Part shown: positions 10,455-36,922 of the stretch, piece by piece
How positions within the stretch are numbered: the first letter of the stretch is position 1
Layout: every line of letters begins with the position of its first letter
Assembly (NCBI GenBank): GCA_022572885.1
Contig: JACZVC010000002.1
Location: 63,135 to 127,134 of the forward strand
Direction of reading: 5' to 3'
Source: Pseudomonadota bacterium
GTDB lineage: Bacteria > Pseudomonadota > Gammaproteobacteria > Steroidobacterales > MnTg04
DNA length: 64,000 bases
Program-made: the position numbers and the translations under genes
Notes under the pieces: generated by a model
Databases searched by the model: none
The model's input: only the letters and a program-made list of their open reading frames with translations
Told to the model about the DNA's origin: nothing

Positions 10455-11529
10455 TTTGCCCGGCCTCGTCGGCCTGCCCGTTCTCAGATGACTTTTGTTC
10501 GACGATTGCTCCCGGTTCAGGGCCTATCATGATCGCGATCCATTGAGTGCGTTCGCTGCTCGACAGGATAATCTGCGCGATCATCGTCAATGGCACCGAC
10601 AACAACATACCGACCGGACCGAGCACCCAGCCCCAGAAGACCAATGACAGAAAAATGATCAGCGGCGATATGCCAAGCGTGCGGCCGAGCAGCCTGGGTT
10701 CCAGCACGCTGCCCAATAGGATGTTGACGGCGAGATAGCCTCCTGCGGTCAGCAGCGCGCTGCTGACTCCCAATTGCACGAGCGCCAGCAGCACAGCCGG
10801 CACCGCGGCGATAATCGAGCCGATGTTGGGGACGAAATTGAAAAAGAATGCGAGCAGACCCCATAGGAACGGATAATCCACGCCCAGTATGGACAACCAG
10901 ATGACCACCAGGATTGCGGTCACCAGGCTGATCAGGCTCTTCAGACCCACATATCTGTTGATGCTGGCGCTGACGTCGGCAAATGTGCTCAGTACACCCT
11001 GCGGACCGGGGAACGCCGTATGTAATTTGGCGGCGAATCCGCCGGCCTCCAGCAGCATGAACGTTACCGTCAACAGGATCAAAAAGGCATTGGTCAGCAT
11101 CGATCCCAGCCCTGCCAGCACGCCCGCCGCAAGACTCATGGCGCGGGCTGGATTCAGCAGTTCCTGAAGGTTGTCAGTCGAAACCTCCAGGCCCAGACGA
11201 TCGATCAGGCTGATGAGACCTGTCGAAATCTCCGCCAGCCGTGCCTGGTACAAAGGCAGGTCACGCGAAAAATCACCGATCGACCGGCTAACGACGGCGC
11301 CCAGGCCGATGCCCACAACGACGATAACGGCGACCACGGCGAGCAATGCGAGCCAGTTCGGCAGGCCGCGGTCGCGCAGCCAGAACATCGGGGGGGCTGC
11401 GATGACGGCGAGGAAAAGCGACAACAGGAACGGAACCAGGATCGGGCTCGCCGCTTTCATCCCGGCCACGACCACGATGAATGCGGCGAGCGCGAGCATT
11501 TTATGGTGTTGAGATTCTGATTGACTCAT
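10429..11529 (-). CDS. AI-2E family transporter (PerM/YhhT-like permease)
   Basis: Polytopic membrane protein with the typical AI-2E arrangement (...[18 protein letters not shown]...). Start set at [10 protein letters not shown] (ATG 11529), because the upstream part of the ORF is Arg/Pro-rich and non-hydrophobic. Its 3' end overlaps purA convergently by 26 nt. Confidence 0.8.
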
Positions 11530-11636
11530 GGCTGGCCCTTTGTTTATTGACGAGGTCTCGGCCTGTAGGGCAGACCGTTTCACTTTGCCATGCCAATCAT
11601 ACGCAGGCCATGCGGACGGGAAAAGCCGGCTGTGGA

Positions 11637-12761
11637 TCAGGTATCCGTCTCTTTCCCAAGGGGCGGGGTGCTCTCGTCGTTTTGTTCCTGCGGGAGCTTG
11701 TTTCTGGCGCCGGTCAACGAGTCGAATGCGCTTCTCATGATCCAGGCCTGGGCGGCCGGAATGCTGCCCCATTGCCCTGGGTCGCGAGCCGTCGCGGCTT
11801 CCAACAGAACCCTTTCGAGAAAGCGGCTGGCGATTTTGCACCGGTCATTGAGCCGATAGAGAATTTGGTAACTCGCCCCTTCATAAATCCGGAAACAGGC
11901 TAGCGGGTCTCCCTCGTTGTAAACCACGGCACCGGACCTTATGGCGTTGTTAATTACTGAGTCAATTAATGACAAATCATCGCTGCTGCACAGAGCCTCC
12001 ATACCCGGTCGCATTTCGTCCAGTTCTGTTTTCAGATCGGCAATTCGCTCGCGCACTTTTTTCAGGTTTCGTTCCGCAGGCCTGTTTTGGGCGGCCGCAA
12101 CCATTGTTTGCAGGACATTTGCCGGAATTGCCAGGTGTACTGGCCGACCGGCACGCACAAACGAAGTCAGCATGCCAATCACTTCTCCATCCATGTTCAG
12201 AACTGGTCCGCCATTCATGCCCGGGATAAAATCATTGGAGATTTGCAGCAACTCGTTAGTACCGCGATGCCTGAACCGTGAAACAATTTTTCCCTGCGAC
12301 AAAGTGACGTTGACGCCCTTGGGACTGCCAATCGCAATGATTTCTTCACCTATTTTTGCCGGCTGCGCCGCGCCGGTATACAGCGGTAGCGGAACGGGGG
12401 CGTCGCTGCGCAGCAGGGCGACTCCCCAGTTTGAATCGGTCAGCGCAACCAACTCGAGAGCCTCGGTCCGTTGGTCCGCCAGCAACATTTCAATGCGCAC
12501 GGTCCCATCGAGAATGTTCAGATTGGTGGCGATCAGGCCGTCCTCGGATACGACGAATCCGCTGCCAATGTTGCGCAGTCCGTCATTGGCTCCGTAGGCA
12601 AGGAGAGTTACGACCGATGGTCTCGCGCTGTCGAGAATCTTCCACAATGCATCGTCGATCTCGCCGGTTTCCGGCTTTTGCGCCGATAATGGCGCAGCGA
12701 GAAAAAGCAGCGGTACAAGCCTCAACAGAAATGAAAATTCCTTTACAGAATGTCGGGTCAT
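11637..12761 (-). CDS. Secreted trypsin-like (S1C/HtrA-fold) protein with all three catalytic residues substituted; unknown C-terminal domain, no PDZ
   Basis: Signal peptide present. The HtrA-like scaffold GSGFVVSEDGLIATNLNIL has Asn where TNxHV has His. WGVALL has Gly where D[IL]A[VL]L has Asp. GMNGGPVL has Asn where GNSGGP has Ser. Confidence 0.75.
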   Translation of the reverse strand: MTRHSVKEFSFLLRLVPLLFLAAPLSAQKPETGEIDDALWKILDSARPSVVTLLAYGANDGLRNIGSGFVVSEDGLIATNLNILDGTVRIEMLLADQRTEALELVALTDSNWGVALLRSDAPVPLPLYTGAAQPAKIGEEIIAIGSPKGVNVTLSQGKIVSRFRHRGTNELLQISNDFIPGMNGGPVLNMDGEVIGMLTSFVRAGRPVHLAIPANVLQTMVAAAQNRPAERNLKKVRERIADLKTELDEMRPGMEALCSSDDLSLIDSVINNAIRSGAVVYNEGDPLACFRIYEGASYQILYRLNDRCKIASRFLERVLLEAATARDPGQWGSIPAAQAWIMRSAFDSLTGARNKLPQEQNDESTPPLGKETDT

Positions 12762-12813
12762 GCCAAATATCCTGGCTGCAGGCTTCTGTTCGACGACCTC
12801 TTGCGCTGTGAAT

Positions 12814-35001: not shown

Positions 35002-36251
35002 TACTCAGCCAAAAATTCTGCCAGGGACAAGCGGGCCGTCAGCACGCGTGACGGCTCGCCGATTTCAGTCCACGCAAACAGCAAGTCACTGCCGGCGCGC
35101 AGCATATGCGGGAAGCCGGAGGAACGCTGGCTGCTGGTCAGGGCAATCTCTTGTGGCTCACCGAGTTCGCCGTTGTGTGCCACGGTTCTGATTTTCAACG
35201 CGGCTTTTCCGTTATCCAGATCATCGAGCCAACTGACCACCGCAAGCCCATCGGCTACCCAACTGACATCCACGCGCCCCAGCGCCGCCCCACTGCTGAT
35301 CGTGACCGCTTCGGAGAAATGCTTGCCGCCGTCGCCGGAGAACGCCAGCCTGACTTGCCTGACATTGCCGGCGCCGGTAAACCAGGCTACGGCCAGCTTG
35401 TCGTTTCGACTATCGATCGCCGGTCCGTTGACCGGGCAACCGGCGATTTGCCAGCCGTCTTTTGCCACCAAGGCGGGTTCGCTCCAGCCACTCTCGGTCA
35501 GCCGGATAATGCTTATGTCGCGGTTCTCGTTCCGGTCCCGGTCACGATAAACCACGGCCACGCCGTTGCTCAGATTTGCCAGGTCGGTCTGGCAGCAATC
35601 GCAAATGAGAGAGTCCAGTTCGATCGATTCAAGGACCTGGCCGCCGCCATCGATCGTGGCCCAACGCAGGGTCATGCCGTTGCTCGCAGCCTCGCCGACC
35701 GACCCGCTCATGTGGTGGCCTCCTGCCTGAGCGGTTTTCCGTCCGTCCAACCAGACCGCGCCGAGAGTTTCGCCCAGCACGGTCATGCTGACAAAACCGT
35801 GTTCGGTCGGGGTGCCGTCATCGTGTGGACTGATCGCGGGTTGCCAGTTCACGCCGTCGCTGGACAATGCAATCTTGACGTCATAGGCATAGGGTCCCCC
35901 GGGCCGTTTTTGCAGCCATTGGGCGGCCCAGAAATCGTTGCCGATGCGGGTTACCGATGGAAAATCTGCCCAGTTGACGAACCAGTCGTCACCGCTTGCC
36001 ACCGTCCGCGGCCGGGACCAGGCCATATCTTCATACACCGAGTAGCGCAGCGTGGCCTTGGCGGCGGTCGATTCGAGCCAGCTTAGAACGATCGTTTCAG
36101 CGGCGCCGGCCTGAAGATGCGGCACCGCGCTGCCAGCGGCGGCGGGCGATTCGATCGGCAGGACTTGCCATTTTTGCCCCGGCGCCTCGCCGGTGCAGGC
36201 CCCCATGGAAAGGGCCAGGAGCAAGATGGTTAATGGATTTCTTGAGCGCAT
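35001..36251 (-). CDS. BNR/Asp-box (sialidase-fold beta-propeller) lipoprotein
   Basis: The ATG at 36251 gives MRSRNPLTILLLALSMGAC (lipobox). Asp-box-like motifs are SSDGVNW and SGDGGKHF, with W/G-rich propeller-like repeats. Family assignment is moderate. Confidence 0.6.
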   Translation of the reverse strand: MRSRNPLTILLLALSMGACTGEAPGQKWQVLPIESPAAAGSAVPHLQAGAAETIVLSWLESTAAKATLRYSVYEDMAWSRPRTVASGDDWFVNWADFPSVTRIGNDFWAAQWLQKRPGGPYAYDVKIALSSDGVNWQPAISPHDDGTPTEHGFVSMTVLGETLGAVWLDGRKTAQAGGHHMSGSVGEAASNGMTLRWATIDGGGQVLESIELDSLICDCCQTDLANLSNGVAVVYRDRDRNENRDISIIRLTESGWSEPALVAKDGWQIAGCPVNGPAIDSRNDKLAVAWFTGAGNVRQVRLAFSGDGGKHFSEAVTISSGAALGRVDVSWVADGLAVVSWLDDLDNGKAALKIRTVAHNGELGEPQEIALTSSQRSSGFPHMLRAGSDLLFAWTEIGEPSRVLTARLSLAEFLAE

Positions 36252-36474
36252 CCGGATTCCCCGCGACAATGACCGACACAGGCAGTATCCTAGCAAAGAG
36301 CGATGGCGAAACGAACAATCTCACGTGCGGGTCGGTGGCCCGCCATTCGATAAGGCATTTTCCCACGGGCTTTCCATGCTTGTGCCGGGGGCAAAAGCGG
36401 GGAGATAGAGGATTAATTGGAAACTGATTTTTGCGGGTGGCATTGTTTACTATGCCGGTGCCTGGTTAGTCGCA

Positions 36475-36861
36475 ATGATCAGTGGCCCGCTGATTCACGA
36501 GGGCGTGCTCGACGAATTGTACAAGGCGCACGCACAGTTCTGGCGACCCGAACTGAACCAGGAGCCACCCGATTTGGCGGCCCTGATGCCGCGCTGGATC
36601 GCCACCGGGCTGATTGGCTCATTTCTCATTGCGGGCGTTTATGGCGTGGTTCGCTCATCCTTTGACGGCGCTGGTTGGCTTAAAGGCCTCAAGTACGGAT
36701 TGGTTTTGTTCCTGATCAGCATATCCTTAGCGCTGGGCTGGTCCGGCGTATTCAATCTTCCCGATGAACTCTGGGTCTGGTGGACATTGGAGTCCCTGTT
36801 TTATTTCCTCGTCGGCGGCATGGCGCTAGGCTGGTTTGCGGATAAATACGCTGCCGCTTGA
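36475..36861 (+). CDS. Hypothetical small membrane protein
   Basis: At least three hydrophobic helices. The open frame continues upstream as KLIFAGGIVYYAGAWLVA with no canonical start, so the true start may be a non-ATG codon upstream of 36475. Confidence 0.5.
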   Translation: MISGPLIHEGVLDELYKAHAQFWRPELNQEPPDLAALMPRWIATGLIGSFLIAGVYGVVRSSFDGAGWLKGLKYGLVLFLISISLALGWSGVFNLPDELWVWWTLESLFYFLVGGMALGWFADKYAAA

Positions 36862-36922
36862 AACCGCTGCCCGCGGTGCGGACGGATTGTTTTCTTCTGT
36901 TTCTCTTCCTGATAAGAGAAAT

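Follow-up and report, generated by a model that had tools for sequence, protein, structure and literature searches.

A tRNA-bordered 26.5-kb gene block between purA and rnr in a gammaproteobacterial clade: probably resident chromosome with a candidate envelope-machine neighbourhood

Tens of kilobases of lineage-specific genes lying against the 3' end of a tRNA gene raise the question of whether they entered the chromosome as a genomic island. We addressed this question in a 64,000-nucleotide stretch of DNA (hereafter the window; positions 63,135 to 127,134 of contig JACZVC010000002.1, assembly GCA_022572885.1) from a Pseudomonadota bacterium of the Steroidobacterales lineage MnTg04, in which 26.5 kb separate the purA stop codon (position 10454) from a tRNA-Leu(CAG) gene (position 36923) located next to rnr. 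A first-pass annotation of the window had described this interval as about 26 kb of accessory-looking DNA with some 22 genes, inserted at a conserved junction. The measured length agrees with that description and the gene block is indeed large, and the gene count is slightly lower: 21 open reading frames (ORFs) were accepted as genes (g01 to g20 and g13b, located at 29347-29625 and too small for the ORF list with its 100-aa limit). The reading that we favour, with a probability of about 0.72, is that the interval belongs to the chromosome of a poorly sampled gammaproteobacterial clade, in which it is fixed and inherited vertically, and is not a mobile island, and that g03-g17 constitute one envelope-machine neighbourhood.

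Composition, mobility marks and conservation of the interval

The interval is delimited by three features, given here in window coordinates.

purA, left anchor, 9135-10454, plus strand: adenylosuccinate synthase (NCBIfam, 661 bits); the true start is likely at 9162 (MGKNIVV...).
tRNA-Leu(CAG), right border, 36923-37009, minus strand: identified by ARAGORN and Rfam.
rnr, right anchor, 37116-39350, plus strand: RNase R (NCBIfam, 827-832 bits).

The order of the flanking genes is the one that had been claimed for them. On the left, NCBIfam models identify an amiB-like gene (AmiB/AmiC-type amidase), mutL, miaA, hflX, hflK, hflC and purA, to which hfq (5262-5552) and a yjeT-like ORF (8943-9131) were added by eye from the translations; on the right, they identify rnr, rlmB and dnaB, together with rpsF-, rpsR- and rplI-sized ORFs assigned by their size. 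The tRNA-Leu(CAG) gene is the only tRNA in the window and the sole Rfam match over its entire length, and its 3' end faces the interval. At the opposite border, purA and g01 are convergent and overlap by 26 bp (10429-10454), so that this border is devoid of any intergenic DNA. Inside the block, the convergent genes g17 and g18 are separated by a 3-bp gap (33915-33919), and neither place therefore offers space for terminators or att sites. In agreement with the earlier description, the block is rich in lipoproteins, signalling proteins and proteins without a recognized family, with a lipobox in seven genes, one Hanks kinase, two FHA-type proteins and several genes lacking a Pfam family.

The composition of the interval is native by each of the measures considered. 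The right-hand 20 kb of the window (44000-64000, beyond dnaB) entered the analysis as a composition reference. Synonymous-codon fractions show a correlation of 0.988 between interval and flank genes, and GC content at third codon positions (GC3) ranges from 0.58 to 0.72 in the interval, compared to 0.59-0.71 in the flanks. The tetranucleotide profile is flat, with each 4-kb segment correlating at 0.92-0.96 with the whole window, and the GC and skew profiles track gene orientation.

Marks of mobility could not be found either. Pfam and NCBIfam scans of the 21 interval ORFs returned no integrase, recombinase or transposase domain, and a decayed integrase gene has no space in the interval, because it is ~95% coding and its non-coding DNA totals only ~1.3 kb. 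Searched with up to three mismatches, a 24-nt pattern from the tRNA 3' end matches itself alone in the whole window, leaving no second copy that could represent an att remnant, and a 16-nt version of this pattern yields three matches against a mean of 1.1 in shuffled sequences, which is at chance level. Comparisons by blastn-short of the tRNA region, and of the left border with the right one, likewise revealed words at chance level, with a single exception. This is a 16-nt exact identity between the interior of the tRNA gene (36960-36975) and the 3' end of hflC (8837-8852; E = 0.003), which we interpret as coincidence and not as an att remnant because it does not involve the tRNA 3' end and lies to the left of purA. 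Megablast searches with 25 kb of the interval produced no match in PLSDB plasmids or in a phage collection, and tblastn with g17 found no relative encoded on PLSDB plasmids. The initial observation that integrase, transposase and a repeat of the tRNA 3' end are all lacking is thus borne out by the domain scans and the repeat searches.

To these results can be added the conservation of the block in related genomes. In a scan of purA loci using one genome per GTDB species, two genomes are close to the window and all others present at most 70% PurA identity; since only these two are close by PurA, the clade must be considered poorly sampled. The two nearest named genomes, 'bacterium MnTg04' (L001) and the metagenome-assembled genome (MAG) B92T3L11 (L002), each show 92% PurA identity. 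L001 provides an unbroken 14.8-kb alignment at 91% identity, running from amiB through purA into g04, and L002 is 89.5% identical in the flank and 81% identical in the interval. Relatives covering the right-hand side were obtained as contigs fetched from the protein database via g13 orthologues. Among them, L083 (GCA_027292775.1) aligns in a single 13.6-kb block of 83.5% identity from g11 through g20 and the tRNA, and L084 is collinear over g07-g16 at 77% identity. The more distant L081, a 190-kb scaffold, encodes an M48 protease, one TPR gene, g08, g09, g10 and onwards to g20, tRNA-Leu(CAG) and rnr in the same order and orientation, with ~70% nucleotide identity in the interval, 85% nucleotide identity in the tRNA-rnr DNA and 86% amino acid identity in RNase R.

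The content of the block is hence collinear across both junctions in five relatives (L001, L002, L081, L083 and L084) that span nucleotide identities from 91% to ~70%. The only differences in gene content seen in the block concern g01, which is present in L001 and missing from L002 (window 10597-11634, corresponding to L002 11459-11496), and the number of TPR paralogues, of which the window has three, L002 four (14941-21207) and L081 one. Compared with the housekeeping flanks, the interval has diverged somewhat faster, a behaviour usual in non-essential genes.

These data bear directly on the possibility that the block is a recent, horizontally acquired accessory island that varies among strains. 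Its large size, its tRNA border and its many familyless genes would be in line with such an origin, as would the presence or absence of g01 and the variable TPR copy number. A recent arrival is nonetheless at odds with host-like codon usage and k-mer content, with the lack of mobility genes, repeats and plasmid or phage matches and, above all, with collinearity in five relatives down to ~70% nucleotide identity, which effectively refutes it; we assign it next to no credence. The notion of accessory-looking DNA or of a genomic island put forward in the first-pass annotation was therefore not sustained, given flank-like composition, the absence of integrase, att repeat and plasmid or phage similarity, and collinear relatives.

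The purA/tRNA-Leu junction in other Gammaproteobacteria

We analyzed 80 purA loci, 54 of which contained enough downstream sequence to be informative. In 35 of the 54, rnr is located 194-8179 bp from purA (median 2.7 kb), and the other 19 have no rnr within 10 kb. All 35 loci with rnr within 10 kb carry a minus-strand tRNA-Leu(CAG) 57-488 bp upstream of rnr, and the gap between purA and this tRNA extends from 51 bp to 7.6 kb. Because the tRNA is always close to rnr, all variation in length falls between purA and the tRNA 3' end. The compact purA/tRNA-Leu-rnr arrangement that had been attributed to other genomes is thus broadly right, with rnr near purA in 35 of 54 loci and tRNA-Leu(CAG) always preceding rnr.

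Several of these loci present peculiarities of their own. In Pseudomonas loci L049, L069, L074, L075, L078, L079 and L080, rnr is preceded by two tRNA-Leu(CAG) genes in tandem, and in L056 the tRNA is located 5.4 kb from purA with no rnr in the next 4.5 kb. Loci L052, L017 and L071, labelled as Bacillota, Alcaligenaceae and Gemmatimonadaceae, respectively, encode PurA proteins 68-69% identical to that of the window. The genes preceding purA are those typical of the gammaproteobacterial left flank, with the full amiB-mutL-miaA-hflXKC run in L052 and a partial one on the short L017 and L071 contigs, and the three loci are probably mis-binned contigs or mislabelled MAGs.

None of the proteins of the window interval was found in the gaps of purA loci from other lineages. 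The genes found there encode a patatin-like lipase and a Met-zincin (Woeseiaceae), DltD, an acyl-CoA dehydrogenase and a chemoreceptor (methyl-accepting chemotaxis protein; Pseudomonas), and none of ten gap ORFs sampled from four other lineages was identified as an integrase by Pfam. One Pseudomonas gap (L079) also contains, besides a chemoreceptor and an ABC transporter, an ORF (14196-14741) whose start resembles Hcp, the tube protein of the type VI secretion system (T6SS), by eye. In several Steroidobacteraceae, the gap between purA and the tRNA measures only 74 bp to 2 kb. Close relatives therefore carry the block with host-like composition and distant relatives are without it: the site is a general variable junction, with gaps from 51 bp to over 10 kb that hold unrelated ordinary genes, and its content in the window is clade-specific.

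How the block came to this junction is a separate matter. Much of it consists of a cassette of genes, described in the next section, that also occurs elsewhere in the genomes of Steroidobacter and Halioxenophilus. Since the cassette is located elsewhere in these genera and the gap is short in several Steroidobacteraceae, it reached the junction in the ancestor of the window clade. The alternative that the block is ancestral and was lost in other lineages was rejected, as other gaps hold unrelated genes and Steroidobacter and Halioxenophilus carry the cassette elsewhere in the genome. The block may have been relocated within the chromosome or have integrated at the tRNA long ago, and the data fit either.

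The earlier suggestion of [quoted passage not shown] is upheld in its second half, as attested by a lineage-specific block in which TPR paralogues number one, three or four. Its first half would entail that a tRNA-Leu-targeting element bearing the cassette entered the tRNA 3' end in the ancestor of the clade, subsequently losing its integrase and att sites and ameliorating in composition. The 3' side of a tRNA gene is the classic position for integration. The interval abuts that end, the one island feature that it displays, and the variation among lineages at the junction falls entirely on this side of the tRNA. Moreover, the presence of the cassette at other loci in other families means that it has moved at least once, and the interval diverges faster than its flanks (81% versus 89.5% identity in L002; ~70% versus 85% in L081). 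Faster divergence is expected anyway for non-housekeeping genes, however, and integrase, att site and compositional trace are all absent. In addition, the overlap of purA and g01 leaves a left border without intergenic DNA, the ten variable-gap ORFs from four other lineages include no integrase, and the block is a mosaic of transporter and protease genes, a multi-gene system and lipopolysaccharide (LPS)-type genes instead of a single cargo. With nothing island-like left in the interval, we regard ancient integrase-mediated arrival as unlikely. Like tRNA-associated genomic islands, the block comprises tens of kilobases of lineage-specific genes abutting a tRNA 3' end at a lineage-variable junction; unlike them, it has no integrase, no direct repeats and a native composition, and is fixed in the sampled relatives.

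Some points weigh against our interpretation of the interval as resident, vertically transmitted chromosome. The classic tRNA 3'-side position and the occurrence of the cassette elsewhere in other families leave room for the ancient integration just considered. Furthermore, the relatives are all metagenome-derived, and the full 26 kb is pieced together from overlapping loci of different genomes, no single locus containing all of it. Finally, the evidence from L081 covers the right side of the block, its purA side lying outside the scaffold data seen.

A gene neighbourhood that recurs at unrelated loci

The description of the block as accessory content overlooked that ~21 of its 26 kb appear to form a single multi-gene system. 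The genes concerned are the following.

g03, 12814-14307, minus strand: M48 zinc metalloprotease lipoprotein, BepA/LoiP-like (Peptidase_M48, 123.5 bits; lipobox LSSC).
g04, 14664-14969, plus strand: small lipoprotein without family, first gene of the g04-g07 run (lipobox VAGC; conserved in L001 and L002).
g05, 15051-16730, plus strand: secreted TPR protein, paralogue of g06 and g07 (Pfam TPR_12; ~30% identity to g06/g07 via L002 cross-matches).
g06, 16742-18265, plus strand: secreted TPR protein with a C-terminal TonB_C-like domain (TonB_C, 24.2 bits, cut-off 24.6).
g07, 18238-19749, plus strand: secreted TPR protein, paralogue of g06 with variable copy number (Pfam; four copies in L002, one in L081).
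g08, 19760-20512, minus strand: lipoprotein, familyless cassette member (lipobox LGAC; homologues by the cassette in L087, L090 and L091, 36-44% identity).
g09, 20457-21119, minus strand: lipoprotein, familyless cassette member (lipobox LAAC; start trimmed to MKLKNLF; L090 homologue, 33% identity).
g10, 21396-23252, plus strand: long acidic low-complexity lipoprotein of 618 aa with a linker of SQ/PSQ repeats; it opens the nine-gene g10-g17 run (lipobox LTGC).
g11, 23252-24478, plus strand: core lipoprotein without family, with an N-terminal alpha/beta domain and a long helical hairpin (present in every cassette).
g12, 24494-26869, plus strand: Hanks-type Ser/Thr kinase with one transmembrane (TM) helix, periplasmic TPR and a C-terminal PEGA/CarboxypepD_reg-like domain (Pkinase, 131 bits).
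g13, 26851-29331, plus strand: cytoplasmic FHA-like domain, one TM helix, four PEGA domains and a C-terminal FGE-sulfatase fold, GldK/PorK-like (Pfam, hhalign).
g13b, 29347-29625, plus strand: small secreted acidic protein of 92 aa (ORF and signal peptide).
g14, 29643-30440, plus strand: TolQ/ExbB/MotA-family proton-channel subunit, the predicted pentamer of a 5:2 motor (MotA_ExbB, 56 bits).
g15, 30449-31804, plus strand: cytoplasmic protein with an Hsp70/DnaK nucleotide-binding domain (NBD)-like fold (residues 1 to ~335) and a C-terminal FHA domain (FHA, 41.6 bits; AlphaFold2 (AF2) and Foldseek).
g16, 31806-32903, plus strand: ExbD/TolR-like TM helix, coiled coil and periplasmic vWA domain with an intact metal ion-dependent adhesion site (MIDAS) DxSxS (VWA_2, 25 bits; alignment).
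g17, 32914-33915, plus strand: paralogue of g16 with the same architecture, predicted second half of a heterodimeric axle (alignment).

The genes g11, g13, a small ORF, g14, g16 and g17 recur in this order at loci unrelated to purA or rnr, in genomes with GC contents of 53-72%. Distant homologues of g13 and g11 are 38-46% identical to those of the window, and the core proteins across distant cassettes are 38-60% identical. The series in L085, L087 and L088/L089 consists of g11, a g12-like TPR protein with or without the kinase, g13, the small ORF, g14, a g15-like gene with or without FHA, g16 and g17, with the g15-like gene missing in L088/L089. An ORF of 56-105 aa occupies the position of g13b in eight of nine cassette loci (L081, L083, L084, L085, L088, L089, L090 and L091), the exception being L087. 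Other components are found around this core in different arrangements. In Halioxenophilus aromaticivorans (AP031496.1; L090), the series has a TPR/TonB_C protein before it and g09, g08 and an M48 protease after it; Steroidobacter cummioxidans (L091) has a g08 homologue upstream of the series, and L087 has both a g08 homologue and a TPR/TonB_C protein beside it. The TPR/TonB_C architecture of g06 is therefore also found next to the cassette in L087 and L090, and an M48 gene adjoins it in L081 and in L090, the latter being a family-level match to g03.

In the window, g10-g17 are nine genes on the same strand that overlap or are separated by gaps of 0-18 bp. Judging from gene order and homology, g05-g17, and probably g03 on the strength of its single M48 counterpart in L090, are one conserved neighbourhood with shuffled peripheral genes, amounting to ~21 of the 26.5 kb (12.8-33.9 kb). 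These genes could instead be functionally unrelated neighbours held together by shared clade ancestry, considering that most components have no experimentally known function and that several domain calls lie near threshold. We deem this highly improbable, as the same six core genes keep their order at unrelated loci of genomes with 53-72% GC and at 38-60% protein identity, with TPR/TonB_C, g08 and g09 homologues or a same-family M48 protease shuffled around them, and the run is tightly packed. The g17 family is large, with 1165 representatives found at E ≤ 1e-3 in a 50%-clustered library, including Woeseia/Woeseiaceae and many gammaproteobacterial MAGs. One public metagenome record names a 330-aa member of this family 'ribosomal protein L29', an obvious misannotation.

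Within the neighbourhood, g14, g16 and g17 combine features of a proton-driven motor. The channel subunit g14 is 49-60% identical in distant cassettes, and its residues T189 and T222 align with the lumen threonines T145 and T178 of Escherichia coli TolQ (8odt_A; numbers counted from the alignment). The g16 and g17 proteins are 19% identical when aligned and 23-27% identical in tblastn cross-matches. Their N-termini consist of a basic stretch followed by a TM helix (...AFLDVMSCGFGAVILVFLII... and ...AFLDVIACGFGAVILMLIL..., respectively), which leads into a coiled-coil-like region of ~110 residues and then into the vWA domain. Across six loci, residues F15, L16, D17, C21, G22, F23, G24 and A25 (FLD..CGFGA) are invariant in both paralogues, and so is the MIDAS motif D173-x-S175-x-S177. 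The vWA match of g17 has an E-value of 0.057, and the vWA assignment of both proteins leans on the VWA_2 scores together with the invariant MIDAS. In ExbD, TolR and MotB, the single N-terminal helix characteristically bears an aspartate at this position. Pfam detected no ExbD, TolR, MotB or OmpA-like domain in the interval ORFs or in the called genes of related cassettes, and PDB sequence searches with g11, g15 and g16 returned nothing useful. The sole OmpA-domain gene seen, in L085, lies ~3 kb outside the cassette.

The two vWA genes belong to the same run as g14, separated from it by g15 in the window and in most fetched loci and without an intervening g15 homologue in L088/L089. In L087, the homologues of g16 and g17 were called as a single 694-aa ORF (14974-17058) with two Asp-bearing helices, which is either a real, topologically odd fusion or an assembly or frameshift artefact.

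A comparable arrangement has been described in a recent study (PMC12204202; Mol Biol Evol 2025, section 8, Fig. 4c/d), which reported tolQ homologues tightly linked to heterologous pairs of membrane-tethered vWA proteins in the absence of tolR/exbD. In that work, a 'transpore helix' of the vWA proteins carries a conserved Asp and is modelled inside a TolQ-like pentamer; most members of the family come from Proteobacteria and Verrucomicrobia, its function is given as unknown, and a role of the vWA transducers in gliding is raised as speculation. The trio analyzed here shares with this class a TolQ/ExbB gene beside two different vWA genes, the lack of tolR/exbD/motB, the Asp-bearing helix, the two ring threonines and its proteobacterial distribution, and its assignment to the class rests on these shared features rather than on a sequence comparison with the Idiomarina seed of that study. 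On this basis, g14, g16 and g17 are quite likely a member of the predicted class of TolQ-like/transpore-helix-vWA motors. The published text covers the motor trio alone, whereas here the trio sits in a conserved set of 13-15 genes.

The remaining genes of the core run point to a phospho-regulatory module. The kinase motifs VALK, HRDIKLSN and DFG can be read in the translation of g12, which has its TM helix at residues 313-331, and kinase-less, TPR-only homologues of g12 are encoded in L087, L088 and L090. In g13, the PEGA domains score 194 bits in four stretches and the FGE-sulfatase domain 154 bits, with a TM helix at residues 170-188. This FGE domain matches GldK/PorK best (E = 1.6e-31), but its GldK score of 110 bits compares with a cut-off of 350. 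At the site of what we take to be the two-cysteine catalytic motif of FGE, g13 reads ...GSSWTSAEISELRVSYR..., with the pair apparently missing, and the domain is probably a binding or structural module. The N-terminus of g13 (residues 10-89) aligns with the FHA profile of g15 in hhalign (probability 97%, E = 3e-11), a relationship seen only by profile-profile comparison.

The AF2 model of g15, based on 32 homologues, has a mean predicted local distance difference test (pLDDT) of 90.8, and its residues 1 to ~335 superpose on the NBDs of DnaK/Hsp70 proteins with a Foldseek E-value of 1e-17 and a TM-score of up to 0.74 on NBD-only entries; residues D12 and D152 are invariant. The kinase domain of g12 and the FHA domain of g15 are found together in the window clade, L085 and L091. 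Loci L087, L088 and L090 lack both, the g15 homologue there either having no FHA match or being missing. This co-variation supports, in a small sample, a link from the kinase to FHA.

The M48 protease g03 scores 116 bits against the BepA model, under its cut-off of 570. In g10, a 48-bp tandem repeat is present in three copies of 95% identity (21529-21670, within the stretch 21486-21683) and encodes the SQ/PSQ linker that follows the lipobox; because conservation in L081 and L084 is poor over the N-terminal half of g10, this linker is probably variable in length. The g11 family yields more than 2000 matches and has no Pfam model. Its AF2 model is of moderate quality (pLDDT 74.8), and its N-terminal domain resembles LptE and the N-domain of TolB weakly (best Foldseek E = 1e-3), which we take as a hint only. 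Pfam searches at E ≤ 1 with the familyless ORFs of the block and with the N-terminus of g13 suggested no credible family.

Five further genes of the block (g01, g02 and g18-g20) are unrelated to the cassette.

g01, 10429-11532, minus strand: AI-2E family transporter, PerM-like (Pfam PF01594, 191 bits; start trimmed to Met104 of the ORF).
g02, 11637-12761, minus strand: secreted trypsin-like serine protease with an HtrA-type catalytic domain (Trypsin_2, 76.8 bits; partial NCBIfam match to the Do family; signal peptide; no PDZ domain detected).
g18, 33919-35001, minus strand: GT9 heptosyltransferase of the LPS-core type (Glyco_transf_9, 155 bits; conserved in L081 and L083).
g19, 35001-36251, minus strand: familyless lipoprotein (lipobox MGAC; faint BNR/sialidase-like signal, BNR_2 E = 0.017; 416 aa in L081 and L083).
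g20, 36475-36861, plus strand: small membrane protein with two hydrophobic helices (79-81% identity to the L081 and L083 counterparts).

Possible function and resemblance to known systems

The gene content of the neighbourhood suggests a tentative functional model, which we hold at slightly less than even odds. According to this model, g03-g17 would encode a widespread and previously undescribed gammaproteobacterial trans-envelope machine in which a TolQ-like channel turns an axle of two vWA proteins, acting with a GldK-like PEGA protein, lipoproteins, TPR/TonB_C proteins and a BepA-like protease, and gated in many lineages by a Hanks kinase and an Hsp70-NBD/FHA protein. In the motor part, which we consider likely, the g14 protein would form a proton-conducting pentamer in the inner membrane, within which the Asp-bearing TM helices of g16 and g17 would replace ExbD/TolR as a dimeric axle moved by proton flow. 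Force would then be transmitted up the coiled-coil stalks of g16 and g17 to the periplasmic vWA domains, whose heads could grip, via MIDAS, periplasmic or outer-membrane partners encoded alongside. Candidate partners are g13, g13b, the lipoproteins g08-g11, the TPR/TonB_C-like proteins g05-g07 and the M48 protease g03. The kinase g12 may sense the periplasm through its TPR/PEGA-like domain and phosphorylate a threonine that the FHA domain of g15, and perhaps the N-terminus of g13, would recognize, and such g12-g15 phosphothreonine signalling might switch the machine on or off by recruiting or releasing g15. In searches of the accessible literature, we found the motor trio described (PMC12204202) and no description of the whole cassette or of its phospho-regulatory module.

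A number of considerations count against this model. The proposed g14:g16:g17 complex relies on motifs and on the precedent of PMC12204202, and the vWA and TonB_C Pfam scores in this genome are near or below gathering cut-offs. On the regulatory side, the FHA-like N-terminus of g13 does not have the canonical phosphothreonine-binding residues, and the co-variation of kinase and FHA amounts to ~3 versus 3 independent lineages. The glycine-rich phosphate loops of Hsp70, as we take these motifs to read, are not evident in g15, and ATPase activity of this protein is doubtful for that reason. Lastly, the biological role is conjectured from what the neighbouring genes encode. On that footing, the most likely role would be outer-membrane or envelope maintenance, or the handling of surface components, in the manner of Tol-Pal or Ton, with envelope maintenance being a plausible but somewhat less than evenly weighted option.

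The proposed machine resembles the Tol-Pal and Ton systems, which have a proton channel of the same family with an Asp-bearing helix and in which force is likewise presumed to pass to periplasmic or outer-membrane partners. TPR proteins (cf. CpoB) and TonB_C-like domains are encoded nearby, and the N-domain of g11 is weakly similar to TolB-N/LptE. In contrast with those systems, the cassette has no ExbD/TolR periplasmic domain, TonB/TolA transducer, Pal, TolB or TonB-dependent receptor, its axle proteins end in vWA domains, and control by a Ser/Thr kinase and FHA proteins is foreign to Ton and Tol. The TonB_C-like domain of g06 is sub-threshold, and the N-terminus of g06 is signal-peptide-like and not a TonB-type anchor.

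Resemblances to gliding machineries raise the alternative that the cassette encodes a gliding or secretion apparatus akin to the type IX secretion system (T9SS)/Gld or to Agl-Glt, with the proton motor driving a GldK/PorK-like ring or a CglB-like vWA adhesin. The T9SS GldKLMN/PorKLMN complexes also combine a proton-driven 5:2-type motor with a protein of the FGE-sulfatase fold (GldK/PorK), the very family that the domain of g13 matches best (1.6e-31). Here, however, the channel belongs to the TolQ/ExbB family and not to GldL, no GldM or GldN is present, and g13, with its four PEGA domains, scores 110 against the GldK cut-off of 350 and is a bitopic inner-membrane protein anchored by a helix, unlike the lipoprotein GldK. 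The Myxococcus Agl-Glt system shares with the cassette a TolQ-like motor with two different TolR-like partners, TPR/TonB_C proteins, several lipoproteins, a vWA protein (CglB) and a cytoplasmic partner of the actin fold (MreB there, the Hsp70-NBD-like g15 here). It differs in that its Glt proteins have no detectable homology to those of the cassette, its vWA protein is an outer-membrane adhesin instead of part of the motor axle, and AglZ and MglA have no equivalents here. Pfam and NCBIfam searches detected no homologues of GldL/M/N, PorL/M/N, SprA, GltA-K or AglQ/S. Even with the published speculation on gliding for vWA transducers (PMC12204202), we consider such an apparatus improbable.

A defensive function was also contemplated, with g10-g17 as an anti-phage or conflict system, either Zorya-like, in which a MotA-like channel would detect a breach of the envelope, or of the 'ternary' vWA/FGS/kinase kind. 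PADLOC analysis of g08-g17 gave weak ZorA matches for g14 (E = 1e-3 to 5e-3) and strong but generic kinase matches to the PD-T4-6 and MADS6 models, and vWA, FGS-fold, FHA, PEGA and Hsp70-like domains are each represented among the conflict systems of the PMC7159879 catalogue, although in a different architecture. The kinase matches are limited to the catalytic domain, and neither Pfam nor PADLOC identified ZorB, ZorC, ZorD or any other Zor model, MoxR, STAND, a GTPase core, a nuclease or another effector domain. Furthermore, the cluster shows no patchiness, being fixed and collinear within its clade; it encodes many lipoproteins and periplasmic scaffolds and has no plasmid-borne homologue of g17. 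With generic kinase and weak ZorA matches as its only PADLOC results, defence was rejected as the main explanation and appears very improbable.

The proposed trans-envelope machine also finds a parallel in its regulation. In the PpkA-Fha1 pathway of T6SS, a membrane-bound Hanks kinase with a periplasmic sensor and a cytoplasmic FHA protein control an envelope machine, and a vWA domain is involved. The cassette departs from this pathway in having no T6SS genes or PP2C phosphatase, in the fusion of FHA to an Hsp70-NBD-like domain, and in the location of vWA on the axle and not on the kinase.

As a genomic-island candidate, then, the locus is ordinary, and it illustrates that a large tRNA-bordered block of familyless genes is no evidence of an island when its composition is native and relatives share the block. 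The purA/tRNA-Leu junction is a place where gammaproteobacterial lineages keep different genes. In the window clade, it provides a well-delimited example of a class of proton motors that has been predicted computationally and is experimentally untouched, with a fuller list of conserved partners and a plausible phospho-regulatory module. The cluster amounts to a parts list for structural work, and the culturable carriers Halioxenophilus aromaticivorans, Steroidobacter cummioxidans and Marinibactrum halimedae make the role of the vWA motor open to genetics. If the model is true, the machine would represent a third kind of coupling between the proton motive force and the outer membrane, beside Ton and Tol, under the control of eukaryote-like phospho-signalling.

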